Assembly: GCA_035541135.1 (NCBI GenBank)
Contig: DATKNW010000041.1
Coordinates: 30,565 to 94,564 of the forward strand
Direction: 5' to 3'
DNA length: 64,000 bases
Origin: Verrucomicrobiia bacterium
GTDB taxonomy: Bacteria > Verrucomicrobiota > Verrucomicrobiia > Palsa-1439
Part shown: positions 7,512-46,100 of the stretch, one piece after another
How the letters are laid out: each line of letters starts with the position of its first letter
How positions within the stretch are numbered: the first letter of the stretch is position 1
Translations under genes and position numbers: made by a program
Notes under the pieces: generated by a model
The model's input: only the letters and a program-made list of their open reading frames with translations
Told to the model about the DNA's origin: nothing
Database searches by the model: none

Positions 7512-7940
7512 TTACGGTACCAGGACCCGCACACGATAGTACCTGGACGGTTCGTTGGTCACCCCGCCGCTGTCGACCATGTTGGTGACCACTCCCAGTC
7601 CGTTGCCCCCGCTCAAGATGTTGGTTTGACCGGTGCTGGTGAAGTTGTTCGAATAACTGCCGTCGCCTGCCCCAATCGTGAACTCCAGAACGTTTGTCCG
7701 CGAAGCGATTCCCGGCGACCACGTATTGTCGCCATTGGCACCGAGATAGGTCACCGTCACATTGCTGCCGGCGGATGTGATGCTGATGACGTGCACGTAT
7801 GCCGCCGTGTTGGTAGGATTGAAACCTGCCAGAAATTGGTTGGTGTTGCTCATCCCTTTGCCCAACGGATCGGCATTGGCCGCAGCCTGGGGACAGTTGG
7901 TGCAACCGAAGTATTGCAGTTGCCACGATTGGTAGGCTGT
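7512..7940 (-). repeat. conserved 3'-terminal gene segment encoding the shared C-terminal domain (copy 1 of 4)
   Basis: Encodes AYQSWQLQYFGCTNCPQAAANADPLGKGMSNTNQFLAGFNPTN...SRYYRVRVLVP. By eye it is about 85-90 percent nucleotide-identical to 12402..12830 and clearly related to 23321..23750 and 45689..46100. Confidence 0.8.
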
Positions 7941-10900
7941 CAACACCCCAACGCAATTCGGTTGAGCATTGGTGCTGACCCCGCCGGCCCCACTGACAAC
8001 AAGTGTCACAGTGTAACTGCCCGCGGCGTACACATGGCTCACACTGGTGGCGGTGGTGTTGGTCGTGCTGCCATCCCCGAAATTCCAGAACCGGTTGGAG
8101 ATGATGCCAGTTGAGGCGTCGGTGAACAACACCGTGAGCGGCTCGAACCCGGTGGAGGGACCGACAGAAAAACTCGCGACCGGTGCCGAGGGCGTAAGCC
8201 TGAAGACAGTACCATTGGCACTGGCCCCCGAGCCGGAGCCTTCCGTCGTTCCATAGAAATAGCCGTCGACACCCTGAACCAACAGAGCAGAGGAATTGGC
8301 GCCATCCACGCCGTTGGTAAACAACCACAGCGTCATCAGGCTGCCGTTGGTCGCAATCTGGAATACGGTGCCGTATCCGCCGTCTCCGCCGCTCTCGGTT
8401 GTCCCGTAGAGATTGCCATCGCTCCCCTGGACCAGCCCGGCATAGGGGTTGGCTCCATCGCCGCAACCAACAAACGACCAAAGACTCGTCAGGCTGCCGC
8501 TCGCGCTGATCCGAAATACGGTGCCATAAGCGCTCGATCCCGATCCGGATCCCGAGGTCGTCCCGTAGAAATTCCCATCGCTGCCCTGCACGAGTGGCGC
8601 GTAGGGGGTGGCCCCGTCCACGCCGTTGGTGAACGACCAGAGCGCTGTCAGGCTGCCGCTGGAGCTGATCCGAAATACGGTGCCATAGGCGCTCGATCCC
8701 GAGCCGGACCCCAAAGTCGTCCCGTAGAAATTGCTGTCGCTGCCTTGAACCAACCCGGCATAGGGAAACGCCCCATCACTGCCACCGCTAAACGACCAGA
8801 GGTTTGTCAGGCTGCCGTTCGCAGTGATCCGAAATACAGTGCCATAAGCGCTCGATCCCGAGCCGGACCCGTAGGTCGTCCCATAGAAATTGCTGTCGCT
8901 GCCTTGAACCAGCCCCGCATAGGGGTACGCCCCGTCACTGCCACCGCTAAACGACCAGAGGTTTGTCAGGCTGCCGTTCGCAGTGATCCGAAATACGGTG
9001 CCGTAGCCATTCGCACCACCGCCGCTGACGGTCGTCCCGTAGAAATTGCCGTCGCTGCCTTGAACCAGCCCGGCATAGGGAACCGCCCCGTCGCTCCCGC
9101 CGCTAAACGACCTGAGGTTTGTGAGGCCACCATTGGTTTGGATCGCAGAAAAGATCAGTGAGAAATTGGCCACCAAGCTCTGGTTCGTTGTCGCCGTGAA
9201 GCTGTAACAGGCCGTGGTACTGACCACCTTGCTGTGTTGGTCGGTCCAGTCCACAAAACTGTAGCAGCCGTTCGGGGTCGCGCACACCGTGACGTTGGAG
9301 CCACAGACCACGGTCCCAGTGCCGCTGATCGAACCGCCTGCCAGCGGGGAACTGGTCGCGCTAATGGTGTTTGAGGTCGGTGCAAACCACGCCACCAACG
9401 TCTCGTTGCTCGTCACCGCAATCGTGTAACAGCGCGAGGTACTGACCACATTACTGTTCTGGTCCGTCCAGTTCACAAAGTTATAGCACGCGTTGGCTGT
9501 CGCGCAGACCGTCACGTTCGACCCGCAGGGGATTGTCCCGCCACCGCTGGTCGTGCCGCCCCCAGATGGCTGGCTGATTGTGGTAATCGTGTTGGAAGAA
9601 ACAACACTGAAGTTGGCCACCAAGCTCCGGTTGGTGGTGACGGTAAAGCCATAGTTGGTGGCCATGCTGACCGCCGATCCGTTTTCTGTCCAGTCGACAA
9701 AAGCGTAGCAAGCATTCGGAGTGGCAGTCACTGTCGCCGTGGACCCATTCGTGTAGATGCCGCCCCCACCAGTGGTGCCGCCGACCGAAGGCGATGAACT
9801 CGTGCTAATCGAGTTGGTCAGCCCCGTGGTAATGCAGTTGGCCACCGTGTCTGTACCGGAGCCGCCCGCGCCATTGACGATCTCCGTCACGTTGAAAGCA
9901 CCGGCCGTGTTGTAGGTGTGGACCACGCCGCCTGTGGCCAGATTGGTCGTGCCGCCATCCCCAAAAGACCAGTACCAGTTGGTGATGCTGCCGCTCGACT
10001 TGTCGGTAAACGTCACCGCCAGGGGCGCGACTCCACTGGTCGGCGCTGCCGTGAAACTGGCCACCGGAGCGGCGCTCCAGCCCGGTACACTCACGTTGTC
10101 GAAGGTGGAAACATTCAACGAGTACGTGAGGCGGGAGCAAACCTCAAGGCCCACCAGAATCGTGTTATTGAGTGAGCTGAACGTGGTTGATCCGACCTGC
10201 GTCCACGTCGTCCCGTTGGTGGAAGAGAAACCGATGATCGTGTTTCCCGTGCGCTCCAGACGGTACCACTGGGGCAGCTTTGTTGCGTCCGCACCGAATG
10301 TCCCGGCAGAGCCACCGCCGGTCGAAGAGCGATAACCAAAGAGGTTGGTGGCAACATCCGCTGGTGTTGACCCTACCAGTACTTGCGACGACTGTCGCGT
10401 CATTTCCGCAGCCCGGGAATTATTGTTCGTGGTTTCGCGCATCATCAGACCCACCTGGTCGATGGTTCCTCCCTGAATTTCGCTGCTGAGACGCGCGGTG
10501 AGTGTGCCATTCCCCGTCATATTGAGATAGGTAAAGTGAAATATGTCGCAATTGTACCCGAAGGAAAGGTTAAGTCCTTGTCCCGCGCCTCTGACTGTGA
10601 ACACAGCGTTGGAATAGACGGCGTTGCCGACCGTGCCGACCGCGCCAACATCCTGATCCAACCACGGCGTGGGCAAGGACGGCAGTGTGGTCGTCGACAC
10701 TTGTGCGGAGTTAGTGCTTTCACCAATGCCGTTGGTCGCTGACACGACGTAATAATACAGAGTACCAGCGGCCAAGACGTTATCGGCATAGCTCGCGAAC
10801 GTCTGGACATTGGCGACGTTGGCGTACGACCCGCCGTTGGTAAGGGAGCGTTTGACGTTGTAACTCCTCGCCCCGGAACTGTTTGTCCACGAAAGCCCGA

Positions 10901-12380
10901 TTTGACTGGCAGACAACGCCGTTGCCACAAGATTAGTTGGGGTCGATGGCACCACGTTGGTGGGCATGGCAATGTCCAGACCCGAGCCCATGGTTTCCCC
11001 GGCTCCGTTCACCGCAGAAACGACGTAGTAGTACGTCGTCCCGTTCGATGCCGTTGTGTCGGTGTAGCTGGTGGTCACCACATTCGAGGCGATAGTCGTG
11101 CAGGGCCCACCCCTGGCAGTCGCGCGCTTGACATTGTAGCTCGTCGCCCCAGAACTGGCTGACCAACTCAAGCTGACTTGCGCGTTGCCCGGCGTCGCCG
11201 TCAAGCCGATGGGCGTCAGTGGCAGACCCGACGTGCGCGTCGGCAACGAGAACAGTAACGTGCCGAAGCCGGGATGATCGGTACACTGGTTGATCGTCAT
11301 CGCGTTTTCAGGTCGGATCGTGCTGGCCATGGTCGCCGTCCAGATCGGATTGGTGATCCCCATGCGGTTGTAGTAATGGTTCCACACCATCTCGTAAATG
11401 GGGCGGAAGAAGGTGCTCGCGTATGTCGCGATGCTGCCCTTGGCCGTGCCGTCGCATGCCGTCCACGAACTGAACGGTACATTCGTGACCAGCAGCCATT
11501 TCGCTTGGTATTCAAAGCCCGTGAACACGCGATCAATGCCGTAGCTGTACAAATCCAGCCCCTGCTTCCAAGCAATCTCGGCGTTTTCGGCCAGAAGGCC
11601 AATGCCAAGTTGGGAGTGATCGAGGTCGCGACTGGTTTCGTAGTTCCAGCCCTGCGCCTGAATGTAATTGGTCACAGCGCCGCTGCAATCAACCGCCGGG
11701 CCGTATTTGAACGCGTTCACCGCCGAATCGAACATTGCCTCATTATCAAGAAAGATGCCGAGGGACATAACGAACTCCATGCTGCTGCTGCTCCAGCCCC
11801 CGTCACCGGAAAAATCCTTGCAGATCGGATAGAAAACATTGAGCATCATCGTGCCGAACCGATTGTAATTGGTCCAGCCGGAGCCGGTATAGCGGAGGAT
11901 TTCGGCAGAGTTGATGAGCTTGGTCCCGTCGAGCGCGGCCAACAACCGCACGTCAGTGCCAGTTAGGTTTGTCAACAACCCGGACCAACCATCCAAGATT
12001 TGGATGGCTTTGTTCGCATACGCCTGGTTGCCCGTGATATACCATCGCAGCGCAAGATCATACGCCGCGACGCTGTTTTGATCCAGCGCGGTTCGATTCA
12101 CGTCAGGATTTCGTCCAGCAGTCGCAAAACCGAACGGACCGCTTCCACCGTAGCTGGATTGGGAGAATTCATTGGTGGAGAACACATAATACCCGCTGGC
12201 CCAAGGCTGGGTATTTGACGCCACCATGCTCTTCATGCGGTCCAGATCCGCCTGGCTATGGTAAATCCCGGGATGAATGAAGTCGGCCCGCACGGGCCGA
12301 CTGGCCGCCGTGAGCCAGAGCAACCAGAACACTCCGACGACAACGAAGCGGCTGGTGACGTCGTCTTGCGAAACCCTCAT
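7512..12380 (-). CDS. giant secreted multidomain surface protein with alginate-lyase-like N-domain, FN3, LamG-like, PKD, InlB B-repeats, GloVer repeats and a conserved C-terminal domain
   Basis: 1622-aa ORF with signal peptide ([18 protein letters not shown]). N-domain ([17 protein letters not shown]...) is alginate-lyase-like and paralogous to the N-domain of 45689..48235. FN3 signature [16 protein letters not shown]...[10 protein letters not shown]. LamG-like domain ([15 protein letters not shown]). PKD domain (WYWSFGDGG). InlB B-repeat units ([10 protein letters not shown]). Six GloVer units ([32 protein letters not shown]...GTVFRI). C-terminal ~140 aa is shared with three other genes in the window. 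Confidence 0.8.
   Translation of the reverse strand: [1622 protein letters not shown]
8240..9140. repeat. tandem ~153-156-nt repeat array encoding GloVer (Gloeo_Verruco) peptide repeats inside 7512..12380
   Basis: Successive units such as gtcgtcccgtagaaattgc(t/c)gtcgctgccttgaacca(g/a)ccc(c/g)gcataggg...gatccgaaatacggtgcc are near-identical at nucleotide level. The last units are almost perfect copies. Confidence 0.7.
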
Positions 12381-12401: not shown

Positions 12402-12830
12402 CTACGGTACCAACACCCGCACACGATAATACCTCGAGGGTTCATTGGTCGCCCCGCCGCTGTCCACCATGTTCGTGACCACTCCCAGTCCGCCGCCTCC
12501 GCTCAAGATGTTGGTTTGACCGGTGCTGGCGAAGTTGTTCGAATAGCTGCCGTCGCCCGCGCCGGCGGTGAACTCCAAGACGTTCGTGCGCGAGGCGATT
12601 CCGGGCGACCACGTATTGTCGCCATTGGCACCGAGATAGGTCACCGTTACATTGGTACCGTCCGACGCGACGTCGACAATATACAGATACGCCGCGCCAT
12701 TGGTTGGATTGAACCCAGCCAGGAACTGGTTGGTGTTGCTCATCCCTTTGCCCAACGGATCCGCATTCGGACTCGCCTGAGAACAAGCGGTGCAGCCGAA
12801 ATACTGGAGCTGCCACGATTGAAATGCGCT
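12402..12830 (-). repeat. conserved 3'-terminal gene segment encoding the shared C-terminal domain (copy 2 of 4)
   Basis: Near-identical at nucleotide level to 7512..7940, including the 60-nt perfect block ccacgtattgtcgccattggcaccgagataggtcacc. Confidence 0.8.
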
Positions 12831-15800
12831 CAACGGCGTTGCGCTGACCTGAAAGGAGTTCGTGCTTTCGCCAAACGTATTCGTCGCAGTGACTACATAG
12901 TAATACGTCGTTCCGTCGCTGAGGCCGGTGTTGGTGAACACCACGCTGCTCACGCTGGCAATCGTCGCATACGACCCGCCGTTGATCGGGGAGCTTTTCA
13001 CGTTGTAGCCGGTGGCATTCGTCACCGCGGACCAACTCAAGGCGACCTGTGAATCGCCGGCGGCGGCCGTCAGGTTAGCTGGCGCCGCAGGGGGGGAACC
13101 GGGTGTGGCGCTGACCACGGTGGAATTGGAACTTTCGCCGGCCAGGTCTAGGGCCGAAACCACGTAGTAATACGTTGTCCCGTTGCTCAGACCCGTGTTG
13201 GTAAAGACCAAGCTCGTCGTGTTCGCAGCAATAATCGCATACGTGCCATTGCTGATTGTTGCACTCTTCACATTATAGCCGGTCGCGCCCGAACTGGCGG
13301 ACCAACTCAATGCCACCTGTTGGTTGCCACCAACGGCCGACAAGCCGGTGGGGGCCGCCGGCGCCGACCAACCCGGTGTGACGGTGACGTTATCGAACGT
13401 GGAAACGTCCAGTTGCGCGGTGTTACGCGAGCACACGCCCAACCCGGCGACATACGCGCTGGCCATGCTGAATGTCCCGGTCGTTCCCACCTGTGTCCAT
13501 GTGACGCCGTTGGAGGATATGAAACCGATGAATGAATTCCCGGATCGCTGGAGCTTCAACCACTGCGGCGGCGAGAGCACCGCCGGGCCGTTTGTCCAAT
13601 TCATGCTGCTCCCCGTGACGGTTCGCGTTGCCAAACGGCTGGTGGCGAGCTGCGTGTCGATGATCACCGCCGCCAACGTGGAATTGGCATTGGTCGTCTC
13701 GCGCATTATGATCCCCACTTTGTCCAGCGTGCCGCCATCCTGAATCGTGGCGACGCGGGCGACAATGGTGCAGTTGTTCGTTACGCTCATGTAGGCGAAA
13801 TTCATCGAATCGGCGGTCCCGCCGATGTCCGAGCCGGCGCCTTCGACCTTGAACGTGGTGCCGTCATAGCTGGCGCCGCCGGCCGTGCCGACGCCGTCGA
13901 TGTCCACATCCGACCATGGCGACGGCATCCCGGTGCCTGCGCCTGTCTCCATGGAATTGTAATCGCTCTCCCCGCACGAATTACTGCCCGAAACCACATA
14001 GAAGTAGTAGCCGTTCTGAACCACCGTCGAATCCGTATAGTTGGTGGTGGTGATGCCCGTGGCAATCGTCGTGTACGGTCCACCCGTGGTCGTGGAGCGT
14101 TTGACGGCGTAACTGGTCGATCCCGAGGATGCATTCCAGCTTACGGAAATGTTCGATGCCGTACTGCTGGACACAGCGAGCGAGAGTGGGGGTGTGGGAA
14201 CAGAGCAACTATTCGTCACCGAATCCAGGTACAACACGACGGTGGATTTCGGACCGACGTCGACCGGTGCGGTCATCACGGCTCCCGAGACAAGATCCGT
14301 GGCCGAGGTGAATCCGGATGGAACTTTCAACTGGTAGGTGTTGCTGGCGTCTCGATTGATACCGATGAGGTAGTTGCCGTACCGGCAAGCCCAGAACAAC
14401 GCTTTGCCGCGAAACGGCATATCGCTTGTCGCATAAGGGTCATTCGGTCCCAGCGGCAGCCGCTCACCCATGTAAGCCTGGGCCGGGTTGTCGGGCGGCA
14501 CGTAAAAGTTCTGCTCGGGTTTGTCCACGATATTCGGTCTCACGTAGAATGAGACGCTGGACGGGACCTGCGGAATGTTCTCGACCACGCCGTACAAATC
14601 ATAGTTCGTGGTGCTGTAGTAGAAGCGACCGAGGCCATTGACGCCTGTGCCGGTCTTGGCCTGCCAATATGTCTCCAGCCACAACCGGTTCGAGCCGTGC
14701 TTGACCGCCACAATGCCGTCGTCCTCGTCCGCCCAGGCAAAATCCGGCTGGCCCTCAGTCATCGGCAACCGAATGCCACTGTCGGTCGCGGCTTTTACCC
14801 CCGAATAATCGCTGAAGACGCCCATGACGTAACGGCCGTCGAAGCTGTTCGCCGCCAGACTGCTGCCGCTGTACCATCTGGTATCGTAGACCAGATTGGT
14901 GAAGTACTGATTGTCGTCGTTGATCATCTGTTTGGCATACCCGACCACGTTCGAGTCAAGCGTTGCCGCCGCAGCTTGCATCCCGTGCGACCACCCGGAG
15001 CTGTCGCCATAGGCGGGGAAATCGGCAAACTCGACATCCGACTCGTTGGCACCCCGCCAGGCAAGCAGACCGATGTCTTCCATCCAATGGTAGTAGTTGG
15101 TCACACTCCCGTGAACGAAGGTCCCCATGTTCGGACGGCGGAACGGCGCGCGCGCCTTGGCCATCTTGACTGCCTGGGTTTGGAACACTGAATTACTGGT
15201 CATCCCATAGAAACTGGCGGCAAAATACTGCATCTCGCCATACGAATTCCCCACGTACCCTTGCTCCCGTGACAGGCCCTTGGCCGTGACCTCCGTGTAG
15301 TTGGTGCCATACATTAAGGAGCTGCCGCCACCGGCCAAGTCGCTGCCCAGCCACGGCTGCAAGCCAATCGCTTCCAGAAGGTACCGCTGGGCGTTGGTCT
15401 CAGTGAAAGCATTCGCGTTCCCGAGATCCTCCAGCCCGCGATTGGCCTTGTAGATGTTCGCATTCGCGATCAATCCCTGGTTCGACAGGTACCAACTGTT
15501 CCGGTTGAGCCTCCCGTAATCGCGGCTGGCGACCAACATGGCGCCCCAAGCCTGCCGACGCGTCAGGCTGCCGCCGCCGCTATAATACACCGTCGCATCG
15601 ACGTTCGTGCCAATTTGGGGAAGCAGGAGATGAATGGCCCATCCCAGGGCCCCGAATCGCCCTCCCCAATTCTCGTTCCCACCGCCTGAACTGACGCTGG
15701 TGCTGGGATTGGCATAGTAACCTGACGCGAACGTGTCCAGCGCGGTAATGACCTGGCTCACGAGAGCGGAATTCTGATAGGCGGCGGTTAGATTGGAAAT

Positions 15801-16643
15801 GGAGTAGGCTTCCGCCAGGAGTTCGACGTCCGAACAGATCCAGTTGGTCACCGCTGTGCTCAATCGGCCACTCACATAACTGTTTACACCGGCCGTGAAC
15901 GTGCCCGAAGCCCCCAAGACCTGACTCTCTGTTGGCACCGAGGGCACGGTGGTGGTCGGCGCCACTCCTTGTGTTTCGCCGGTGGGGATCAGCAGCGGGT
16001 CGACGTGCGTGTAGGCCGCATAAATGGCGCGGCTGTTGGTGATCATGGCGAACTGGTAATTGCCACTCGGTGGTCCACCTGATCCGAGTGTATAAATCCG
16101 CCCGGCGGAAACGATTTCGACCGTCAAGTTCGTCCGGCCTTGCGTCATCCACAGCGGCAGAAGCGTGGTCGAATAGAAGAAACGCCCGGGCAACGGCGGG
16201 AAGCAAGCCGCGGCGTTCAGACCGATGTAATCACCCTCGTGTCGATAGCCGATTTGCCAGTTCGTTGTCGAGCCCGCGTGGAACTGGCTATCGGGAACAT
16301 ACAGGTACAGCCTCCCCATGTTGGAGTCCTGCTCGAGGACGCTGCTCGAGTCTTCCCCACCCCAAAGTTTTATCGAGACGTAATTCCGGCGGAACGAATC
16401 CACATTCATCGTGAAGGTCAGGTTGCCGCCATACACGCCGGAAGCGCTGCTGTTGCTGATGCAACGGCGCGCTGTCTGCCCCAACGCTCCGGTCAGCGAA
16501 AACGTGTTGTTGGCGACAAGCGAATGGCCGGCCTCGGAACTCGCGTTGCCAAAAACAATCGTGTCCGATTGTTGCGCCGGACATGGCACCAGCCACGCCC
16601 ATAGGCCACACCCGCACAATGCCATCCTGAGCACCGTCTTCAT
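12402..16643 (-). CDS. giant secreted multidomain surface protein with a putative glycan-degrading N-domain (paralog of 1531..3858), FN3, LamG-like, FN3 x2 and the conserved C-terminal domain
   Basis: ORF 12402..16700. The likely start is ATG at 16643 ([25 protein letters not shown], signal peptide, preceded by agcaagagaagggaacagaggt). N-domain matches 1531..3858. FN3 motifs ([32 protein letters not shown]). LamG-like domain ([15 protein letters not shown]). C-terminal [43 protein letters not shown]...[11 protein letters not shown]. Confidence 0.8.
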   Translation of the reverse strand: [1413 protein letters not shown]

Positions 16644-19323: not shown

Positions 19324-19956
19324 CTAGGGTGTTAAAGCCGCGGCTGTTTCGGGGGTGACCACCTGATAATTGAAATCGAACCACTCGCGCGGCGTTTTTG
19401 GATTCGCCGGGGCGTCGGGCGCACGTGTCGTGCGAGGGATGATGGCCAGATCAACAATTCTCGCCTCCATGAGCCGTTTGATTTCCTGATCATGATCGCC
19501 GTTCGACGCAACGACTACCAGTCTGGAGTTTCCTTTGGACACCCGGTCGGCCTTCATGGCGGGTACTCCAATGAGCGACACCACGGCATCCACGTCGGGA
19601 TGGCTCTCCAAGATCCGCGCATACACATCCCCCGGCAGGGACAACTGCGAGTCATCCGTCAATGGAACCAACTCGGTGCCCACCACGGTGAGTTTTCCCG
19701 CCCGTCTGACCGATTGTCCGAAGATCTGCCGGAGTTTCATCGTTTGTTCGCACATGGCGCAATCTGCCGCCGCGACCACAACAATTCTGCCGTGATTCCC
19801 CAACAACTTCCCGGTCTGCTCGACCGCCGCGTCCCCGACTCCCTGCACCATCGAGTCCCCGACCGTGATCGGCTGTCGCTGCGTCTGCACCATCATCACA
19901 ATCGCCACCGCAAGCATCAGGCCCACAACCACCCCGATCAATTTCTGGTTACTCAT
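19324..19956 (-). CDS. membrane-anchored periplasmic CxxC protein, thioredoxin-fold-like (inferred); paralog of 21331..21936
   Basis: 210 aa. N-terminal TM (LIGVVVGLMLAVAIVMMV). Beta-strand-CxxC-helix pattern RIVVVAAADCAMCEQTMKLRQIF. A later V-P loop (SLIGVPA) could be the cis-Pro loop. It is encoded directly downstream of a pseudopilin gene. Confidence 0.6.
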   Translation of the reverse strand: MSNQKLIGVVVGLMLAVAIVMMVQTQRQPITVGDSMVQGVGDAAVEQTGKLLGNHGRIVVVAAADCAMCEQTMKLRQIFGQSVRRAGKLTVVGTELVPLTDDSQLSLPGDVYARILESHPDVDAVVSLIGVPAMKADRVSKGNSRLVVVASNGDHDQEIKRLMEARIVDLAIIPRTTRAPDAPANPKTPREWFDFNYQVVTPETAAALTP

Positions 19957-20022
19957 AATCTAGTCCATGCCGCGGGTTTCTGTCGGGTCAAATGTTGAAA
20001 GATGGTCAACCTGATCCGGTCA

Positions 20023-23320: not shown

Positions 23321-23750
23321 TTACGGGAGCAGCACGCGGACACGATAGAACCGTGAGGGTTTGTTCGTCGCGCCGCCGCTGTCCACCATGTTGGTGACCG
23401 CTCCCAGCCCGGTTCCGCCACTGAGGATATTGGTCTGACCAGTGCTCACGAAATTGTTCGTGTAGCTGCCGTTGGCCGTGCCTGTCGTAAACTCCAATAC
23501 GTTCGTGCGCGACGCGACACCCGGTGACCAGGTACTGTCACCGCTGGCGCCCAGATAAGTCACCTTGACGTCCGCGGTGTTCGTCTTGGCGACGCTGATG
23601 ATATGCAGATTCGCCGTGCTGTTGGTCGGGTTGAAACCCGCCAGGAACTCATTGGTGTTGTTCATGCCATCGCCGTCCGGATCAGCCGTACCGGCCGCGC
23701 TCGCGCCGCCGCCAGGGAAGTAGTGGGCCTTCCACGCGGTGTATGAATCC
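23321..23750 (-). repeat. conserved 3'-terminal gene segment encoding the shared C-terminal domain (copy 3 of 4)
   Basis: About 75 percent nucleotide identity to copies 1 and 2 by eye. The protein is collinear through the TSP3-like DPDGDGM..N.EFLAGFNPTN block and the terminal FYRVRVL.P. Confidence 0.7.
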
Positions 23751-26700
23751 GTCACTCCGGTGACGTGCAGGATCACCGACCCGGCGACGCTCGTATCAAT
23801 CGTGTACGTCAAGCTGGGGTTCGGCTTCGTCCCCACGAGCAGACCGTTGTTTACCAACGTCCCCGTGTACGTGATCAGCGTGTAGTCGCCAATGCCAAAC
23901 CCGCCGGCATCGGAGAGGTTAACGATTCCGCCCAACGTGAGGTTACCATGGCCTTCCAGTCGATCACAGGTGCCCGGACTGCCCAAGTCCCAGGCCATGA
24001 TTGACAGATTCCCTAATACGACGTCATTGCTGGCGACGATCGTACCAATCGAAAAGCCCGGCGAGAGCGCGCCGTTCACCGTCAGCGTGCCGATAATCGA
24101 ACCGACGCCGCGCAGTGTGGCGTTGTTGTTGATGACCAGACCATCATTAAACGCGTGGAAACCGGTCCCGCCCGCGGCCAATTCCAAGCTTGCCGCATCA
24201 ACGCCATCGCCCACCGTCAACGTCCCGCTACCGGCGTCGACCGTCGTGCCGCCCGTGTTGAGCGTGCCCGCGTTAAACACAATGGGGTTCCCCGCGATCG
24301 CGCGCATGCCGCCGGCTGCCACCTTGCCACCGGTGATAGCCAGGATGTTGTTCGTCGTTGCCGCGCCGTTCGGGCCAACCCACAAGAAACCGACGTTGGT
24401 GACGATGCCGCCGGAGCTGACCTGGAGCACGTCATTCGTGCAGGCCTGATCGCCGATGGCCACGTTCGTTGCACCGCCAGCGTCCCACGTCGCGCCATTG
24501 CCCGCGACTACCATGGTGTTGCTGGTTCCACCACCGCGGCCAACTTCCCAGTAGGAGTTGATCGCGCTGGTAACTGACGGCGCGCCGGTAAACAACTTGC
24601 CGCCGTTTGTGACGATCAGGACGTTCCCCACAGCCTCCGGGCCGTTGCCCCAAATGATTTCGCCGGCGTTGGTGACAATGCCGCCGCTGTTGATGATCAT
24701 GGTGCCATTGACGCCAGGGGACTGCAGGCGAGCGTCGCCCAAATTCACCGTTGCGCCAGCCAACACCCATACCGTGTTATTGGTGGCGTCACCGACGCCC
24801 GTTGCGCCGTAGCCAATTGTGAAGGCGCCGTTGGTCCCGGCATTCCCATTGATACCCATATTCAGCACCGCGTTGGTGATGACCATATTGCAGAACGTAC
24901 TTCCGACACGTCCGCCGACATCCACGTTGCCACCGAAAGTATTTGGTGAAGAAATGCCGACACCGCCGGAGTTGGGACCGTCATCAAACGTTCCTACGAC
25001 GACCGAGGCGGGCGCTCCCGCGCTGCCGATCTGCAAGAGGTTGCTGTAGCAACCACTGCCTGCACCGACCATGAGTTCGTGGGCGACAACCAAGCTGGCG
25101 CCATTGTTGACAATCAACGAGCAATTCGTGTTGGCCCCGTTATCGGCAATATACACCGAATTGACATTCGTGACGGCTGCGCCCGCGGCAATCGTTACAG
25201 TTTCGCCCTGACAGGTGCCGCCGGGCCCCTGGCCAGGCCGCAGGAAACCGCCGCCGCAATCGACCACGGTGTTGGGATCAGTGATTAGTGCCATGTTATT
25301 GGCGTTGAGGCTGTCCCCGCCGCCGCCAGGGCTACCGTTGCCGACGTGGAGGGTCACACAGAACAACGTGCTGCCGCCCGCGACAACCAACGAGCCATTC
25401 GTTGTCGCACCGCTCTGGCCGACCACCACTTCGCCCATGCAGAACACCTTGGCACCATTGGTAATGATCAGTTGCTCATTGAGGCTCGGCACGTTGTCCC
25501 CGATAAAGATCCGGGCCACGTTGGTCAGCACGCCGCCGCTGGTCACCACCATCATGTCGTTCGTGTTAGCCGCCACAGCGGTGCTGCCACTCGAGAAAAA
25601 GCCAACTTCAAAATCATTGGATCCGAGATCCCACACCGAGCCACTACCGGTGAGCGTCCCGATGTTGTAAGCGTCCCCGGTGCCCCAGCCAATACCGCTG
25701 CCCTGACCGGAGCCGGTATTGGGATTCGTGAGGTACACCTGGCTGCCATTGGTAATGATCAGTGTGTTGTTATTCGCGCCAGCGCCACAGCGACCCGCTA
25801 TCAGTTTGCCCGCGTAGACAACGACCGGCGCGCCATTGCTGCCGACCTGGAACAGGTTGTTACTGCTGATCGCGCCCGCGCCAATGCCGATGTCTCCATC
25901 GACGAACAACTGGGCGCCATTGTTAAGAATCAGGCTGTTGTTGGCACCCGGTCCGTTGTCGCCCGCATAGATTCGCGCGACGTTTGTGACGATCGCACCA
26001 TCCTTGATCAGCAGCGTGTTATTTGTTGCGCAGCCAGAGGGCAGCCCCGCCCCAAAACCGACTCTCAAATCATTGGAGCCAAGGTCCCACGTTGTGCCAG
26101 CGCCCGTGACGATACCCAGATTGTTGAGCGCGCCGCCACCGTTGGCGAATCCGATGCCCGACTGATCTGATACCGCGCCACTACCCGTCGTGTACACCGC
26201 GCTGCCGTTCGTGATGATCAGCGTGTTCAGGCCGGCACTCGGCCCGAGGCCGACCTGGATCGGACCGGTCCCGATCGTAACAGGGGCACCGGCGCCGCCA
26301 ACCTGAAACAGGTTGTTGGACGCACCCTGACCCGAGCCGACCCCAATCATACGGTATGTAAAAAGCTGGCCGCCGTTGTTGACGACGACGTTGTTGCTGT
26401 AACCAGGGCCATTGTCGGCAATGAACAATCGGTTCACATTGGTCACCGCGCCGCCCGATGTAATCAGCAGCGTATTGCTGCGGGTATTGCCCGCCGTTAT
26501 CAACCCGAATCCGACGCGCAGATCGTTGGAGCCAAGATCCCATATGGAACCATTGCCGGTAACAACCCCGACATTGTTGGATGAGAAGCTGCCGGTTCCG
26601 ATGCCCGCCACGCCGGTGGCCAGAAGCCCACCGTTGGTGACCAGCAACTGACAGGACGACCCGCCATACCCAACCGTAAGTGTGCCAAAGTTGGGGACGT

Positions 26701-27451: not shown

Positions 27452-30400
27452 TCAGGCAGACCGGCGACTCCGCCGCAGCAGCGCGATCATCAGGGTCACG
27501 CCTACGCCCATGAGAGCCATCGTCGACGGCTCCGGAATCACGATCGCAATGTCATCCAGTCCCTGATAGTTGTAGTCGACCGAGTATCCGGCCGGCACGC
27601 CCACTACGTTCCCGAATGTCCCGCTCAACGTACCGTAGTCGGCAATCACGTAGGCCGATTCATCCAAGGAAACCGCATTCACGCTGAGGGTCCCGCTGAG
27701 GGTCAACAGACCGGTGACATTCACCACGTCTTCAGTCTCGCTGCCCATGCCGAACACGTTGCACTGGTAGGTGCCACCGAGCGTCATACTGCCGTTGTCG
27801 GTCAATATGCCAACCTGCGAGTTAAGCGAGGGCGACAGGGTCCCGTTCTCCGTCACATTGCCCGCGCCGCCGTTGACATTGAGAGTCCCACTGCCACGCA
27901 GTATCTGCCCGCCATTAACCGTCACGCTGTTGACGTTGGCGATGCCGTTGGCCATCTCCAAGGCGTTATTGCCGCCGCCGCCGACCACAATCGCGCCATT
28001 CTGAACCACGCCGCCATTGGCCAGCCGCAGCACGTTGTTGGTGGTCGCGCCAAACGTGCCGCCAACCGTCAGCGTGTGTCCGCCGATGTCCCAGACAGAG
28101 CCTGCACCATCAACCGTTACGTTGTTGTTGTTCGCGCTGTTGCCGCGTCCGATCTCCCAGTACGTGCCGGCAGCCGAGCCGTTGGACAATTGACCGCCGT
28201 TGGTAACGATGAGGGAATTTCCAGATCCTCCGTTGCCCCAGATGGTCTCGCCAACGTTGGCAACCGTGCCCTGATTGATCACCAGGCTTCCCCCGAATCC
28301 GGACGCTTGGAGGCGATTCGTGATGTTGGCAACATTGCCGACCGTCCAGGTGCCGCCGGCCAGCACGCTCACACTGCTATTGGTCGACGTAGCATTACCG
28401 CCAACATTGATGTTTCCAGAGGCTTCTATTACCGCCGCGTTGGTGACAATTATGTAGTTGTTCAGCGTGCTCGCGCTGTTCCCGATCGTGATACCGTTAC
28501 CTGCGGTAAGAGTGCTCGCCGCACCCGCGCCGCCCACCAAGGCGTAGCTGTTGCTGGCGCCGGTCGCCTGACCAACATTGAAGACGCCGTTGTCGAAGAA
28601 CTGGCCGCCGTTGTTGATGATGATGCCGTTACCGCTTGATGTCCCGGAGTCCGTGATATACATGGCGCTCACGTTCGTCACCACGCCGCCGGCGGTAACT
28701 GTCAGGCTGGCGCCAAACGTGGCCGTCCCGCCGGTAAAATTCGCATACGCCTCATGCAACGCCTGGTTGCCCAGATTCCACATGGAACCAGACCCGGTGA
28801 CCAGCATCGTGGCATTGGTCGACCCGCCGCCGCCGATGTAGCTGTTGCCCGAGCTGAACACCTGGCCGCCGCTATTGATGGTCATGTATGGGTTTACGTC
28901 ACCGACGTGCTGGCCGACCGCGATCGCACTGCCACTGCTCAGGAAGAGTTTACCGCCATTGCTAACGATGACCCCGTCATTATATCCGGGGTTGTTATCG
29001 GCAATGTACACAGTACCCGCGTTGGTGACCACCCCGCCGGAGGTTACCGTCAAGGTGTTGCCGTAGTTGGTGGCGCCAACGCCGATATTGAGAGCCGTGT
29101 TGCCCATATTCCAAACCGATCCGGTGTCCGTGACCAGGGCAAAGTTGTTGCTTGTAGCAGTCGAGGAGCCGACGGCCAAGCCGCCACTGGAAATGAACCC
29201 GCCGCCGCTAACGATCACCCCGTTCTTAGTGCCGCCGGTGCCCGAAGCAATGCTGACCGTGCCAGCGTTGAACCAAATCTGACCGCCGTTGGTGACGATC
29301 AACAGGTTGCCGTATCCGGCTCCGTTGTCAGAGATAAATGCCCTCTGGACGTTGGTCATGACACCACCGCCAGTAACCACAAAGGTGTTGTTGCTGTTGG
29401 GCGATCCGCTTCCACCTGCACCCGATCGCAAGGTCCCATTGCCCATGTTCCACAGGGTGCCCGAGGTAACCGTCGCAACGTTGCCGACCGCGAAGCTGGC
29501 GGAACCGACGGCCACATTTCCTCCGCCGGTAAAGATGTTGATGTTGGTGACGATCATCTGGTTGTTGTGAGAATTCATGCCGCTGCCAACAATGATGTTG
29601 GCACTGCCGGCATTCGCGTTGGTGATAAAGCTGGCCGCTCCCGCGCCGCCCGCGTAGAAGATATTGCCGTTGGCGCCGGAGCCTGACCCCACGTAAACGC
29701 CCGATGCAATCGTGGAATTGTTGGCAAAAACCAGCCTGCCGCCATCGTTAATGGCCAAGCTGTTGTTCACGCCGGCGCTGTTGTCCGCGATGAATACCCG
29801 AAGGACGTTGGAAACCGCTCCGCCCGAAGTAACGAGGAGCGAGTTGTTACTCTGGCTGCTCCCGCCAAACCCAGCGGCAATCCGCATGTCCACAGCCTGG
29901 TTATTCCACACCGATCCGCTGCCGGTCACTACCGCGGAGTTGTTGGAAGCGCCGCCGCCGTAACCAACGTACGAATACCCGGTAACCAGTTTGCCGCCGT
30001 TGGTGACGATCACCTGGTTGCCCGCGCTGCCGTTGCCCACCGTGAACGCGCCGTATGAGCTGGCGACGTTGGTGAAGTACGAGTTGGCGCCGCTGATGGT
30101 CAGCGCGCCCTGGCCGGTGCTGGCGTTACCCAAGGTGGTAGCTGCTGTCAGCACCGAGCCGTTGGTCAAGACGTAGCTCCCTTGGCCCGCGTCACCAACA
30201 ATGAAGTTGTTTGTGGGCACCCCGCCGTAAGTGGTATTGGCAATGACCGCGCCACCGTCCTGATAGACCGTCGCGACGCTGCCGGCCGTCTGCCCGACGT
30301 CAATCGCGCCGTAGTTGCTACCAAGCACCCATGTGTTAGTCCCTGCCTCCAGCGTCACAGTGCCGCCATTAAACCCAGCGGAGTTAACTTCCGCACCTAC

Positions 30401-30649
30401 GCCAGTACTGAAGTACACCGAATAGTTCATGTAATTGGTGAACGCCAAACTATCCAACTGCGGCGCATCCGAGCCGGGATACACGATGTCCCCAAAGCCC
30501 AGGCCGTCATCCCAATTCGCCGGATCCAGATAGTTGCCGCTGCCCAGATTTGTCCACGTCAAACTCTGTTGCGCTTGCACGGTCCTGCTCACCATCATGA
30601 CCGCCGCAAACATGACCAAAATCCACATCAAGACACTCGACTTCCTCAT
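27452..30649 (-). CDS. PEP-CTERM sorting-domain surface protein with autotransporter-associated beta-strand-like repeats
   Basis: 1065 aa. Signal peptide MRKSSVLMWILVMFAAVMMVSRTVQA. Same N-terminal module as 23321..27271 (LTWTNLGSGNYLDPANW). Repeats ...NNSLLVTSGGAVSNVLRVFIADNSAGVNNSL.INDGGRL.... C-terminus IVIPEPSTMALMGVGVTLMIALLRRSRRSA is the PEP motif, TM helix and Arg-rich tail. Confidence 0.8.
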   Translation of the reverse strand: MRKSSVLMWILVMFAAVMMVSRTVQAQQSLTWTNLGSGNYLDPANWDDGLGFGDIVYPGSDAPQLDSLAFTNYMNYSVYFSTGVGAEVNSAGFNGGTVTLEAGTNTWVLGSNYGAIDVGQTAGSVATVYQDGGAVIANTTYGGVPTNNFIVGDAGQGSYVLTNGSVLTAATTLGNASTGQGALTISGANSYFTNVASSYGAFTVGNGSAGNQVIVTNGGKLVTGYSYVGYGGGASNNSAVVTGSGSVWNNQAVDMRIAAGFGGSSQSNNSLLVTSGGAVSNVLRVFIADNSAGVNNSLAINDGGRLVFANNSTIASGVYVGSGSGANGNIFYAGGAGAASFITNANAGSANIIVGSGMNSHNNQMIVTNINIFTGGGNVAVGSASFAVGNVATVTSGTLWNMGNGTLRSGAGGSGSPNSNNTFVVTGGGVMTNVQRAFISDNGAGYGNLLIVTNGGQIWFNAGTVSIASGTGGTKNGVIVSGGGFISSGGLAVGSSTATSNNFALVTDTGSVWNMGNTALNIGVGATNYGNTLTVTSGGVVTNAGTVYIADNNPGYNDGVIVSNGGKLFLSSGSAIAVGQHVGDVNPYMTINSGGQVFSSGNSYIGGGGSTNATMLVTGSGSMWNLGNQALHEAYANFTGGTATFGASLTVTAGGVVTNVSAMYITDSGTSSGNGIIINNGGQFFDNGVFNVGQATGASNSYALVGGAGAASTLTAGNGITIGNSASTLNNYIIVTNAAVIEASGNINVGGNATSTNSSVSVLAGGTWTVGNVANITNRLQASGFGGSLVINQGTVANVGETIWGNGGSGNSLIVTNGGQLSNGSAAGTYWEIGRGNSANNNNVTVDGAGSVWDIGGHTLTVGGTFGATTNNVLRLANGGVVQNGAIVVGGGGNNALEMANGIANVNSVTVNGGQILRGSGTLNVNGGAGNVTENGTLSPSLNSQVGILTDNGSMTLGGTYQCNVFGMGSETEDVVNVTGLLTLSGTLSVNAVSLDESAYVIADYGTLSGTFGNVVGVPAGYSVDYNYQGLDDIAIVIPEPSTMALMGVGVTLMIALLRRSRRSA

Positions 30650-44582: not shown

Positions 44583-45692
44583 TCACGTAAGTCTGGCCGC
44601 AGCCTCCGCGGTGATCTGCCATTTCAACGGTTTACCGGCCACGAAGCGGCGCAGTTCCTCGACCATGCAGCGACCCATTCGGCCGCATTCGGCTCCCAGG
44701 GAGCCGGCGATGTGGGGAGTCAGCACAACGTTGGGCAGCGTGAGCAGCGGCGAATCAAGCGCCGGCGGCTCGGGATCCGTCACGTCCAAGACCGCCGTCA
44801 GATCGCGCCGTTGACGGAGTACGTCGATCATCTCCTGTTCTCGTATGATCGCTCCTCGAGCCGTGTTAATCAGGGTCCCGCCGCGTTTCATTGAGGCAAT
44901 ATGTCGCCCAGTGACAAGGCCCCGCGTTCCCGTCAGCTTCGGGGTATGAATCGAGACGACGTCCGCGAGCTTGAAAACATCGGGCAGCGAGCACCGTTCG
45001 ACGCGGAGTTGTCTGGCCTCGTCCGCCGTCAGAAATGGACAGTAGACGATTCGACGGATGTCAAATGGGGCAAGGAGTTCCAGGACCTTTCGAGCGACCA
45101 CGCCGACGGAAACCAAACCCACCGTGCTCCGGTATCCGCCGGGCACGGAGCGCGTGTGGTCTGCCCACCCCTCCCCTTTACGGGTGGCGACGGCATAGCT
45201 CCAGAAACGTTTGAGACTGAGAAGGATGACTCCCAGTGTGTATTCGGCAACCGGGACCGCGTTGGCCGCCGACGCGCTGGTGATAATGATGTTACGCTCC
45301 CAAAACGCAGCGCTGGTAATGGGGCGAATTGAGCCGGCCCCGTAAAACACAGCCTGTAGTCTTGGAGACGCCTGCAAAAACGCCTTGTCCATTACCGGCG
45401 CCCCCCAACCAGAAAAGATGACGTCGGCGGGGGCCAGGAGCCAGGGTTTGCGGGCGATGGATTCCCGTGTCTGGAGTGGGGCAACGATATCGACCAACTC
45501 GGCGATCTCGCGTTGTTCTTCCGCACCATAAACCAACTCGAACGCGCCTTTGTCCAGGATGTACAACCCCTTCAGCCGCTTCCCGTCACGCCCGGCCCCG
45601 CGGAAAAACTTCGGGCCTTTGCCACCGAGTGGACGCACCGCCACGCCGCGCACTGTGTGATGTAATTGATTCGCCCGAGCCGCCTTCATCAT
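44583..45692 (-). CDS. D-isomer-specific 2-hydroxyacid dehydrogenase family protein (NAD-binding)
   Basis: Blocks GLVSVGVVARKV (GxGxxG-like), VVSIHTPKLTGTRGLV, VLTPHIAGS. The start ATGATG overlaps the stop of the upstream gene as ATGATGA. Confidence 0.8.
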   Translation of the reverse strand: MMKAARANQLHHTVRGVAVRPLGGKGPKFFRGAGRDGKRLKGLYILDKGAFELVYGAEEQREIAELVDIVAPLQTRESIARKPWLLAPADVIFSGWGAPVMDKAFLQASPRLQAVFYGAGSIRPITSAAFWERNIIITSASAANAVPVAEYTLGVILLSLKRFWSYAVATRKGEGWADHTRSVPGGYRSTVGLVSVGVVARKVLELLAPFDIRRIVYCPFLTADEARQLRVERCSLPDVFKLADVVSIHTPKLTGTRGLVTGRHIASMKRGGTLINTARGAIIREQEMIDVLRQRRDLTAVLDVTDPEPPALDSPLLTLPNVVLTPHIAGSLGAECGRMGRCMVEELRRFVAGKPLKWQITAEAAARLT

Positions 45693-46100
45693 GGCACCAG
45701 TCGAATGCGATAGAACCGGGATGGGGCATTGGTGGCCCCACCGGGATCCGTATAGTTCGTGACCGCCCCGCCCGCGATGGGAAGGACTGTCAGGGAGTTG
45801 ACAATGTCGACGAAGTTATTGCTGTATCCACCGCTGGCGTCGCCGCCACTGACCTGCACCATGTTGGTGCGCACGCCAGCCGTCGTCCAAGCAACCACAA
45901 CATCGCTGGTCTCCCGCGCCACGGACAGGATCCGGAACACCGATGCCGGGTTGGTCGGGTCCAACCCTGCCAAAAACTGATTGGTGTTGCTCATGCCCTT
46001 GCCAAGCGGATCCGCATTGGCCGCAGCCTGTGGGCAATTGGTGCAATTGAAGTGTTGCATCTGCCATTGCTGGAAGATCGACAGGACATATGCGCTGGCC
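45689..46100 (-). repeat. conserved 3'-terminal gene segment encoding the shared C-terminal domain (copy 4 of 4, most diverged)
   Basis: Retains the block ctgattggtgttgctcatgcccttgccaagcggatccgcattggccgcagcctgtgggca, near-identical to copies 1 and 2. Elsewhere it is more diverged. Confidence 0.65.

Follow-up and report, generated by a model that had tools for sequence, protein, structure and literature searches.

Which role would one and the same C-terminal domain play at the end of four long exported proteins, and what accounts for the likeness of its copies? The question is raised by the 64-kb stretch of soil Verrucomicrobia DNA analysed here (the window), a polysaccharide-degradation locus for which an initial annotation had described a shared calcium-binding module, kept nearly identical in DNA by gene conversion and serving as a sorting or anchoring domain equivalent to PEP-CTERM.

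Four exported proteins of the locus end in the same module

The four genes so described (here g1 to g4) are present at the positions given in Table 1, all on the minus strand, and each ends in a homologous module of 131-143 aa, with tblastn E-values between the copies of 1e-25 to 1e-79. Signal peptides are predicted in all four products (4/4); the mechanical ORFs of g2, g3 and g4 start further upstream, and the ATG starts of the initial annotation give good signal peptides. The lyase domains of g1 and g4 are 35% identical, and g3 has no Pfam match. We also observe a decayed fifth copy, missed previously, whose stop codon overlaps the ATG of g4 and which is 70% identical over 88 nt to the 3' end of g4 itself; no remainder of a module was found upstream of it.

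Table 1. Module-bearing genes of the window, their terminal modules, the partial copy and the PEP-CTERM paralog.
Feature	Coordinates	Strand	Length	Description
g1 (HVM61327.1)	7512..12380	-	1622 aa	Sec-exported; alginate-lyase-like N-terminal domain, 2 fn3, DUF1349-like, PKD, 3 Flg_new_2, 6 GloVer repeats, PKD, module
g1 module	7515..7943	-	143 aa	Long subtype; loop DPLGKGMSNTNQ at 7836-7871 (Lys-substituted form), CxxC upstream of it; C-terminus RYYRVRVLVP, then stop codon
g2	12402..16643	-	1413 aa	Sec-exported; 21 nt downstream of g1 (increasing coordinate); large N-terminal region without annotation, fn3, DUF1349-like, 2 fn3, module
g2 module	12405..12833	-	143 aa	Long subtype; DPLGKG loop at 12726-12761
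g3	23321..27271	-	1316 aa	Adhesin-like beta-strand-repeat protein ending in module
g3 module	23324..23752	-	143 aa	Long subtype; loop DPDGDGMNNTNE at 23648-23683 (canonical EF-hand/DxDxDG)
g5	27452..30649	-	1065 aa	Paralog of g3; C-terminus is PEP-CTERM (residues 1038-1063, nt 27461-27538), no module
g4 (HVM61346.1)	45689..48235	-	848 aa	Alginate-lyase-family protein; lyase domain, fn3, domain without assignment, fn3, module
g4 module	45692..46084	-	131 aa	Short subtype; DPLGKG loop at 45977-46012; C-terminus RFYRIRLVP, then stop codon
Relic	48235..48321	-	29 aa	Decayed partial fifth copy, last 29 aa of a short-type module, GAGGAVTCYTDSGGGTDSPSKSHPTRVLP

Anatomy of the module and two forms of its loop

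The module opens with an amphipathic helix (W-x3-[YH]F), behind which a CxxC is frequently present, continues with a 12-residue EF-hand/DxDxDG-type loop and an exit helix (N-x-F-L-A-G-x-[ND]-P-T-N), and closes with an FN3-like beta-sandwich whose final strand, R-[FY]-Y-R-[IV]-R-[LV]-x-P, terminates the protein. The consensus string first written for it fits g1, g2 and g4, and g3, which has no CxxC, only loosely. AlphaFold predicts the same succession of helix, loop and helix followed by a generic FN3-like sandwich (AF2 models m324d876fc055 for the g3 module, pLDDT 75.6, with a 6-strand sandwich, and mddcb1f77aa0a for the g4 module, pLDDT 82). As modelled, the fold is generic, so that the structure gives no specific functional clue. 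Its similarity to fibronectin type III (PF00041) is one of fold class only: there is no Pfam fn3 match in the module, though fn3 matches occur elsewhere in these proteins, and hhalign of the module against the window's own fn3 domains gives a probability of 1.9%. No TM segment is present. Conservation peaks in the last strand (3.4 bits per column) and in the loop/helix/NPTN segment (3.0 bits).

The loop was originally taken for a TSP3-like calcium-binding motif, a description that holds for g3 but not for the other three copies. In g3 (DPDGDG...E) the residues D, D, D, N and E at positions 1, 3, 5, 9 and 12, with Gly at 6, match EF-hand-type oxygen ligands by sequence, and this would be the calcium-binding form. 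In g1, g2 and g4 the loop DPLGKG...Q has D, L, K, N and Q at these positions and G at 6; three acidic ligands are lost and a Lys is gained, which probably replaces the cation in loops of the DP[LYF]GKG...Q type, making them, that of g1 included, probably calcium-free. Across the family this dimorphism is sharp, with 101 DDE as against 154 [LYFQC]KQ loops and zero mixed forms. Each form is found in the long as well as the short subtype, and this genome alone contains both; the acidic ligands have been lost from about 60% of copies. The canonical form D-P-D-G-D-G-x-x-N-x-x-E, with acidic or amide residues at 1, 3, 5, 9 and 12 and Gly at 6, does resemble the bacterial TSP3 repeat (PF18884) and similar DxDxDG loops, and 5/63 relatives, with canonical loops, score on PF18884. 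The module loop differs in being a single element and no repeat array, and in the L, K and Q at positions 3, 5 and 12 of g1, g2 and g4, and the window modules match neither PF18884 nor PF02412 even at E≤10.

A large family confined almost entirely to protein ends

Profile A1 matches 13,786, 2,767 and 648 representative proteins at E≤1e-3, 1e-10 and 1e-30, respectively. As had been suspected, none of this carries a family name: Pfam-A (E≤10), NCBIfam (E≤1) and the PDB sequences have no match covering the module, the public names of carriers are only 'hypothetical' or 'PKD repeat protein', and literature searches for the module found nothing. The identifiable carriers all come from Verrucomicrobiia MAGs, and the profile matches place the module in an extensive domain family of Verrucomicrobiia that has so far gone without a name.

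The C-terminal position proposed at the outset was borne out by the profile search in so far as a full copy lies ≤5 aa from the C-terminus in 146/149 top representatives, and 97/100 genomic copies (74 genome loci plus the window, counted independently of gene calling) end exactly at the stop codon. The position is overwhelmingly rather than strictly terminal, as in 17/149 top representatives the full module occurs twice or three times, in some cases internally, in a top-150 list that is ranked by score and so over-represents multi-copy proteins. Among single proteins, P0124 bears an N-terminal copy, P0169 is a stand-alone protein of signal peptide and module only, and P0205 is a prepilin N-terminus fused to the module; the contexts of stand-alone copies showed nothing notable.

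About 21 Verrucomicrobiia MAGs account for the 74 loci, some with as many as 9 or more each. Within ±6 kb of them we found no partner, receptor or dedicated machinery gene. The sole recurrent neighbour is a prepilin-type N-methyl/DUF1559-like gene (12/74 loci, a frequency that may equal the expected background), and prepilin-type genes occur twice in the window.

Diverse cargo and alternation with PEP-CTERM

The 63 carrier proteins contain 73 Pfam families, including pectate lyases, GH28, GH5, apiosidase, pectinesterase, RGL11, PATR and Ig, with PKD in 30/63, and the cargo takes in enzymes for unrelated substrates as well as non-enzymatic proteins (PATR, Ig, RCC1 and GloVer). Polysaccharide lyases, hydrolases and adhesin-like repeat proteins exported by Sec carry the module at their ends, in many cases behind a PKD or Ig spacer, and because the cargo is so diverse these data suggest that its role is independent of the cargo.

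The neighbouring gene g5 had been read as ending in PEP-CTERM, and both Pfam (E=2.9e-5) and TIGR02595 (E=4.1e-5) confirm this; with 35% identity over about 1050 aa, g3 and g5 are true paralogs with different endings. Homologous cargo bearing either the module or PEP-CTERM was seen in three independent cases (g3/g5 and two more) and no ORF in 75 loci has both; the combination of PEP motif, hydrophobic helix and basic tail is absent from g1-g4. The GloVer repeats of g1 are themselves 'choice-of-anchor' in NCBIfam naming. Such alternation on the same cargo points to a selected, specific function. PEP-CTERM (exosortase; PF07589, TIGR02595) thus takes the module's place at the end of homologous proteins within the same genomes, and like the module it is found on GloVer and beta-strand-repeat proteins. 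It is, however, a signal of about 25 aa (motif, TM helix and basic tail), whereas the module is a soluble folded unit of 130-143 aa, and the mechanism must differ.

A possible surface-docking tag

We tentatively propose that the module is a folded C-terminal tag for non-covalent surface docking or sorting, a reading that seems to us the likeliest of those considered, though short of probable. It retains the sorting or anchoring role suggested at the outset, which the terminal position and the alternation with PEP-CTERM fit and which we infer from them. The cargo would be exported by Sec and then fold, and the tag would attach it, without a covalent bond, to a single shared receptor of the envelope or matrix, either a protein or a glycan, so that the enzymes stay at the cell surface or close to it. 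The module would in this way fill the functional slot that PEP-CTERM fills in paralogs, acting like a dockerin or cell-surface-binding domain and not like a cleaved sortase-type signal. The tandem and internal copies (17/149), the stand-alone P0169 and the lack of a TM segment argue for a folded docking domain over such a cleaved signal. In addition, the best-conserved parts, the last strand and the loop/helix/NPTN segment, would fit a common interface, and the signal peptides of the four window proteins, together with CxxC in 177/326 module copies, point to an extracytoplasmic location.

A working analogy for the proposed mechanism may be the type I dockerin (PF00404) of cellulosomes, which docks non-covalently to a common receptor, is likewise small and usually C-terminal on diverse polysaccharide-degrading enzymes, and combines an EF-hand-type calcium loop with a helix. 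The module differs in having one loop instead of a duplicated pair, in its attached FN3-like sandwich, absent from dockerins, and in the frequent loss of acidic ligands; it has no match to PF00404 in Pfam at E≤10, and no cohesin-like recurrent partner was identified in the 74 loci.

Secretion, substrate binding or stabilization

The strict ending at the stop codon (97/100 copies) would be no less expected of a secretion signal that depends on the terminus than of a docking domain, and the module might instead be recognised for outer-membrane transport by a dedicated or adapted machine, functionally comparable to the T9SS CTD or to a recognition domain of type II secretion, and afterwards perhaps be removed or attached. 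We regard this as unlikely, although it would agree with the final strand and terminal Pro being the most conserved features, with the alternation with PEP-CTERM, and with the high copy number per genome on cargo of unrelated kinds, frequently behind a PKD or Ig spacer as in T9SS cargo. The prepilin-type genes near 12/74 loci and the fusion P0205 could also be cited for it, but that neighbour frequency may be chance. Tandem or internal full copies and the N-terminal copy of P0124 would be unusual for a signal read from the terminus, and no conserved machinery gene occurs in the 74 loci.

T9SS is a system of Bacteroidota and allies. Its CTD (TIGR04183/PF18962 Por_Secre_tail) resembles the module in being lineage-specific, in its dozens of copies per genome and in its structure and place, an Ig/FN3-like folded sandwich (about 80-100 aa) that forms the very end of many unrelated enzymes and adhesins exported by Sec and frequently follows PKD or Ig domains. 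The module differs in its extra N-terminal helix, EF-hand loop and helix, in its Verrucomicrobiia carriers and in its tandem and internal copies, so that against the single terminal copy typical of the CTD it is terminal in 146/149 and 97/100 cases, yet multi-copy in 17/149. No PorU/PorV-like partner was seen. Neither the type A (TIGR04183/PF18962) nor the type B (TIGR04131) model matches over the module (NCBIfam E≤1, Pfam E≤10), and none of the T9SS core genes (PorK/L/M/N, Sov/SprA, PorU, PorV) was seen within the 64-kb window and the ±6-kb loci.

Considering that the cargo is rich in acidic-polysaccharide enzymes, a substrate-targeting carbohydrate-binding module (CBM) is a further candidate: the sandwich would bind a polysaccharide, perhaps an acidic one, via conserved exposed Arg and Tyr residues (Y87, Y125, R126 and R128 are conserved) and concentrate enzymes on their substrate. 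In size the beta-sandwich is that of a typical CBM, enzymes acting on pectin, alginate or uronate are frequent among the carriers, the window is itself a polysaccharide-degradation locus, and tandem copies would give avidity. We nevertheless doubt that this is the explanation, since the 73 Pfam families extend to the non-enzymatic PATR, Ig, RCC1 and GloVer cargo and to enzymes for unrelated substrates, confinement to the last residue of the protein is not normal for CBMs, and away from the terminus conservation is highest in the helix-loop-helix and not on a face of the sandwich. Alternation with PEP-CTERM on the same cargo would not be expected either.

It is more doubtful still that the module is a passive spacer or stabilising domain that neither sorts nor binds and owes its frequency at 3' ends solely to the ease with which 3' cassettes shuffle. 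The generic FN3-like sandwich and the failure to find a partner would suit such a domain, as would the signs of 3'-end shuffling, namely the relic at 48235-48321, the young g1/g2 module and some 28 changes of loop type along the sandwich tree. Against it stand the dN/dS of about 0.12 between the g1 and g2 modules, the near invariance of the surface-type loop, NPTN and RxR residues over hundreds of paralogs, the further exported proteins of the same locus that lack the module, and the alternation with a known sorting signal, which speaks for a specific function.

Divergence among the copies

The likeness of the four copies had been put down to gene conversion, with g1 and g2 said to be 85-90% identical in DNA and to share 60-nt perfect blocks. 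The measured identity of these two is 82.5-83.1% over 429-433 nt with a longest perfect run of 44 nt, and all other pairs, far from near-identical, reach 56-70% over the codon alignment. At the protein level identity is 86% for g1/g2, 66-68% for g1 or g2 against g3, and 44-55% for any pair with g4. What does stand is that the g1 and g2 modules are more alike than the rest of these genes: they are mutual nearest neighbours (86% aa identity, as against ≤74% to any other collected copy), and their dS of 0.72 compares with 2.25 for the remaining domains common to both, which on synonymous divergence makes these modules younger than those domains.

Conversion as the cause of this likeness found no support, and we rejected homogenised paralogs as a description of the four copies. 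Ongoing conversion that keeps them nearly identical in DNA is scarcely credible and largely refuted, with 38/119 synonymous-capable codons differing between g1 and g2 without clustering (p=0.12 and 0.25), dS of 1.07-1.9 in all remaining pairs, and the closest matches of the g3 and g4 modules (74% and 71%) coming from other genomes and not from the window; an old g1/g2 exchange is its residual possibility. The young modules of the adjacent g1 and g2 can be explained, without continuing conversion, by an old event in which a 3' end was duplicated or swapped between them, and under the docking proposal the likeness of the window copies would reflect purifying selection on a shared fold or interface together with this one event. 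A 27-aa stretch identical in g1 and g4 has only 82% DNA identity, which argues for selection on the protein.

A common C-terminal module on four exported proteins

The ORF list and translations agree with the four large genes of the initial annotation (g1 to g4; see table for coordinates), and their domain annotation likewise bears out that the N-terminal parts differ. While g1 carries an alginate-lyase-like domain, fn3, DUF1349-like, PKD and Flg_new_2 domains and six GloVer repeats, g2 has a large region without annotation plus fn3 and DUF1349-like domains, g3 has beta-strand repeats without a Pfam match, and g4 has Alginate_lyase and fn3 domains, the lyase domains of g1 and g4 being paralogs (35% over ~480 aa). 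As had been claimed, one homologous module ends all four, in a long (g1, g2, g3) or a short (g4) subtype: tblastn between the window copies gives E = 1e-25 to 1e-79, and amino acid identity is 86% for g1/g2, 66-68% between either of these and g3, and 44-55% in all pairs that include g4, a likeness which by these scores is far beyond chance. A partial fifth copy, absent from the initial annotation, has a decayed YYRIRL motif and a stop codon that overlaps the ATG of g4, and is 70% identical to the 3' end of g4 over 88 nt. These features point to an earlier module-bearing gene upstream, cut down by rearrangement.

Coordinates of module-bearing genes, their modules and other features of the window
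Feature	Position	Strand	Remarks
g1	7512-12380	minus	1622 aa; signal-peptide-like N-terminal segment
g2	12402-16643	minus	1413 aa; signal-peptide-like N-terminal segment
g3	23321-27271	minus	1316 aa; signal-peptide-like N-terminal segment
g4	45689-48235	minus	848 aa; signal-peptide-like N-terminal segment
g5	27452-30649		PEP-CTERM ending
Module of g1	7515-7943	minus	143 aa
Module of g2	12405-12833	minus	143 aa
Module of g3	23324-23752	minus	143 aa
Module of g4	45692-46084	minus	131 aa
Partial fifth module copy (decayed relic)	48235-48321	minus	last 29 residues, short type; within ORF 48232-48666
Third alginate-lyase-like protein	3855-7469		1204 aa; signal peptide
Duplicated two-gene cassette	19324-22874	minus	between g2 and g3
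N_methyl + DUF1559 prepilin-type genes of cassette	21999-22874 and 20023-21006	minus
Second ORFs of cassette, paralogous	21331-21936 and 19324-19956	minus	~200 aa; N-terminal TM segment; no Pfam match
Three ORFs in a row	48965-52383	plus	no Pfam match
First of the three	48965-49840	plus	Gly/Asn-rich; signal peptide
Second of the three	49862-51121	plus	419 aa
Third of the three	51166-52383	plus	405 aa
Integrase-like ORF	52574-53812

The module belongs to no named family, as first thought: no Pfam-A (E<=10) or NCBIfam (E<=1) model spans it, the best match in a profile search of all PDB sequences has only E=0.36, its homologs bear the generic public names 'hypothetical protein' or 'PKD repeat protein', and we did not find it described in literature on thrombospondin/TSP3, PEP-CTERM, choice-of-anchor or dockerin in Verrucomicrobia(ota) and Planctomycetes. 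A profile built from 37 sequences and searched exhaustively against 1.84 billion representative proteins matched 13,786 of them at E<=1e-3, 2,767 at E<=1e-10 and 648 at E<=1e-30; the best 150 matches, ranked by score, served for analyses of representative proteins, and a crude heuristic scored 75/109 of the Met-initiated ones as positive for a signal peptide. The window proteins HVM61327 and HVM61346 come from a Verrucomicrobiae MAG, and the best 74 loci from species-representative genomes, found with back-translated patterns and hence biased to close relatives, all derive from ~21 MAGs of Verrucomicrobiia or Verrucomicrobiota, chiefly from peat and soil, a single MAG contributing as many as nine or more. 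The EF-hand-type loop and FN3-like sandwich described below are familiar as single elements; what is new is their combination, the terminal restriction, the family's size in Verrucomicrobiia and the Ca/Lys dimorphism of the loop.

Module anatomy and two forms of the loop

AlphaFold2 models of the short subtype (g4, pLDDT 82) and the long subtype (g3, pLDDT 76) show the same layout with moderate confidence. It runs from a first helix (W-x3-[YH]F) through a linker to a 12-residue loop, its exit helix (N-x-FLAG) and NPTN, and ends in a five- to six-strand sandwich; in the long subtype the 10 inserted residues loop out between strands 2 and 3. Descent of the sandwich from the fn3 domains in these same proteins was considered and rejected (hhalign probability 1.9%). 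Across 326 unique copies conservation is highest in the final strand, R-[FY]-Y-R-[IV]-R-[LV]-x-P (3.4 bits per column), with 3.0 bits per column in the loop/helix/NPTN segment, and 177/326 have a CxxC before the loop, which fits an extracytoplasmic protein.

In a canonical loop, D-P-D-G-D-G-x-x-N-x-x-E, oxygen ligands occupy EF-hand positions 1, 3, 5, 9 and 12, with Gly at 6. The Ca-binding motif originally assigned to all four genes takes this form only in g3, whereas g1, g2 and g4 read D-P-L-G-K-G-M-S-N-T-N-Q, without three of the acidic ligands and with a Lys. The g3 loop also gives a match (23648-23683, E=0.17) to NCBIfam NF042425, the Amuc_1099 family of the Akkermansia pilus-like system, which is confined to the loop, is too weak to use and probably reflects just a common DxDxDG loop. 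Among 255 parsable loops, 101 are D/D/E versus 154 non-acidic (152 of these being [LYFQC]/K/Q) and none is mixed (Fisher p≈1e-73, with the relatedness of copies ignored). Both forms are present in both length subtypes and in the window's one genome, and a neighbour-joining tree restricted to the sandwich implies at least ~28 switches of loop form, a noisy figure, which could reflect swapping of the N-terminal segment. That the three acidic ligands are lost together with the gain of Lys suggests that the Lys amine stands in for Ca2+ in the non-canonical loop; the all-or-none swap to Leu/Lys/Gln would then be a clear-cut natural example in which a side-chain amine replaces a cation site.

Terminal position, cargo and alternation with PEP-CTERM

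A full module copy ends <=5 residues from the protein end in 146/149 best representatives, and when the 74 loci and the window are translated from stop to stop, so that gene calling plays no part, 97/100 full copies end exactly at the stop codon. Thus the C-terminal placement held as a rule, although tandem and internal copies exist: 17/149 best representatives, a list ranked by score in which multi-copy proteins are over-represented, have two or three full copies. Two carriers have three each (P0090, 1012 aa; P0095, 1547 aa), the former with an apiosidase/GH5-like part followed by PKD-module-PKD-module-module, which shows the module to be, as judged from sequence, a repeatable unit of folding and function. 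In P0124 a copy follows the signal peptide directly, and the metagenomic P0205 (381 aa) opens with a prepilin-type methylation segment ([21 protein letters not shown]) that runs straight into a long-type module with ~130 further residues behind it, one of only three best-149 representatives with a non-terminal module. P0169 is a genuine signal peptide plus module and nothing else; no machinery genes were seen in its context. A second apparent stand-alone copy, P0033, was dropped as a gene split by a frameshift. At L078 (757-2254, long-read assembly) only 14 nt separate a pectate-lyase ORF from a 'stand-alone' module ORF of 142 aa; a frameshift has most likely broken a single gene in two here, which calls for caution over many short 'module-only' proteins in databases.

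The cargo is diverse, the 63 complete carriers matching 73 different Pfam families, among them pectate lyases, Pel9A-like helices, GH28, GH5, apiosidase, pectinesterase, RGL11 and chondroitinase B, as well as CBM96, LamG, PATR, RCC1 and Ig domains, with PKD in 30/63. PEP-CTERM-like tails occur in 12 related loci and never on the same ORF as the module, and in three independent cases homologous cargo has one or the other ending: g3 and its neighbour g5, whose PEP-CTERM end and paralogy had been correctly noted (35% over ~1050 aa); an adjacent pair in L074; and GloVer proteins (L036/L038/L042 against L061). Since the other exported proteins of the window have neither ending, the tag is selective.

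A putative docking tag

The initial annotation took the module for a sorting or surface-attachment domain equivalent to PEP-CTERM. Its terminal position and alternation with PEP-CTERM fit such a role, and within it we tentatively favour a folded docking tag that would hold cargo non-covalently at the cell surface. After Sec export of the cargo, the module would bind a common envelope or matrix receptor and so keep diverse enzymes and adhesins on the cell, filling the slot of PEP-CTERM in paralogs and acting like a dockerin or cell-surface-binding domain. Cargo that is independent of the tag, a tag on only some exported proteins, exchange with PEP-CTERM on homologous cargo, strongly conserved surface-type motifs, the avidity expected from tandem copies and the existence of a stand-alone copy all point this way; however, no partner was seen among the loci examined, and the strict ending at the stop codon would suit a terminus-dependent secretion signal equally well, an alternative that we nonetheless consider unlikely. 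A substrate-binding CBM, which would suit the fold and the many uronate-active enzymes, seems similarly doubtful, being at odds with the non-enzymatic cargo, the terminal restriction and the PEP-CTERM alternation. That the module is a passive end-cap is less probable still, given a dN/dS of ~0.12 and the conserved surface motifs.

By function, the closest systems to this putative docking tag are the T9SS C-terminal domain, the type I dockerin and PEP-CTERM; in the sequence tests run the module belongs to none of them, and comparison would place it in kind among C-terminal folded sorting or docking tags. A broader reading, which we hold to be improbable, is that it is the address tag of an undescribed Verrucomicrobiota protein-sorting pathway, read by a dedicated outer-membrane or pseudopilus-associated machine that would export or attach many of the enzymes and adhesins in each genome. 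The module would then be the PVC equivalent of the T9SS C-terminal domain in Bacteroidota, and its recognition loop an inbuilt switch between a Ca-dependent and a Lys-substituted state.

In soil, peat and water, Verrucomicrobia play a major part in breaking down the polysaccharides of plants and algae. To our knowledge the delivery of their very large enzymes to the surface is poorly understood, and we know of no general cargo tag for the phylum besides PEP-CTERM, nor did we find one in the literature. The distinct secreted CAZymes and adhesins whose C-terminus the module marks may number in the hundreds to thousands, and the same cargo can carry PEP-CTERM in its place. The module could thus offer a handle, from sequence alone, on which proteins of uncultured Verrucomicrobiia make up the surface or secreted proteome, could be used in phylogenetic profiling to seek a receptor or machine, and would lend itself to modelling as a Pfam or NCBIfam family.

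Divergence of the module copies

The g1 and g2 modules had been put at 85-90% DNA identity with 60-nt perfect blocks, whereas we find 82.5% over 429 nt (83.1% over 433 nt by blastn) and a longest perfect run of 44 nt. By Nei-Gojobori their dS is 0.72 and dN 0.088, with dS at 1.07-1.92 for every other module pair of the window. Where g1 and g2 share a residue and a synonymous change is possible, 38/119 codons differ, and these differences are unclustered (longest identical run p=0.12; number of runs p=0.25); short conversion tracts behind the patchy identity were dropped on these non-significant permutation tests. g1 and g4 share a stretch of 27 identical residues whose DNA matches at only 82%, and the identity of this stretch is therefore held by selection on the protein. 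In a comparison with 339 copies collected from other genomes and metagenomes, the g1 and g2 modules are each other's closest match (86% vs <=74%), while the closest relatives of g3 (74%) and g4 (71%) lie in other genomes, outside the window. Consequently dS, run lengths, clustering and nearest neighbours give no sign of continuing homogenisation: with dS from 0.72 to 1.9 and g3 and g4 not grouping by genome, the copies do not behave as paralogs homogenised by gene conversion, and the proposal that ongoing conversion keeps them alike is rejected as highly improbable. The other domains common to g1 and g2 (fn3 and DUF1349-like) are 42% identical in amino acids with a saturated dS of 2.25, and the simplest reading of the g1 and g2 sequences would be one old duplication, or a 3'-end swap between adjacent genes, followed by divergence.

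Neighbouring genes

The window is a polysaccharide-degradation locus with three alginate-lyase-like genes, heparinase II/III, GH3, GH97 and GH127, and also holds a LacI regulator, an SSF transporter and two DUF1559 pseudopilin genes. The third alginate-lyase-like protein has neither module nor PEP-CTERM. Over the 74 loci a prepilin-type N-methyl/DUF1559-like gene is the only recurrent non-cargo neighbour (12/74), which may be background and was not counted as evidence; the largest module-free neighbour cluster (115 ORFs, 50 loci) proved to be antisense shadow ORFs of module genes, 93/115 overlapping them. An integrase-like ORF lies in the same window as the relic. Of three consecutive ORFs on the plus strand, the first might encode a beta-helix protein, and the C-terminal sequences of the other two are alike by eye.
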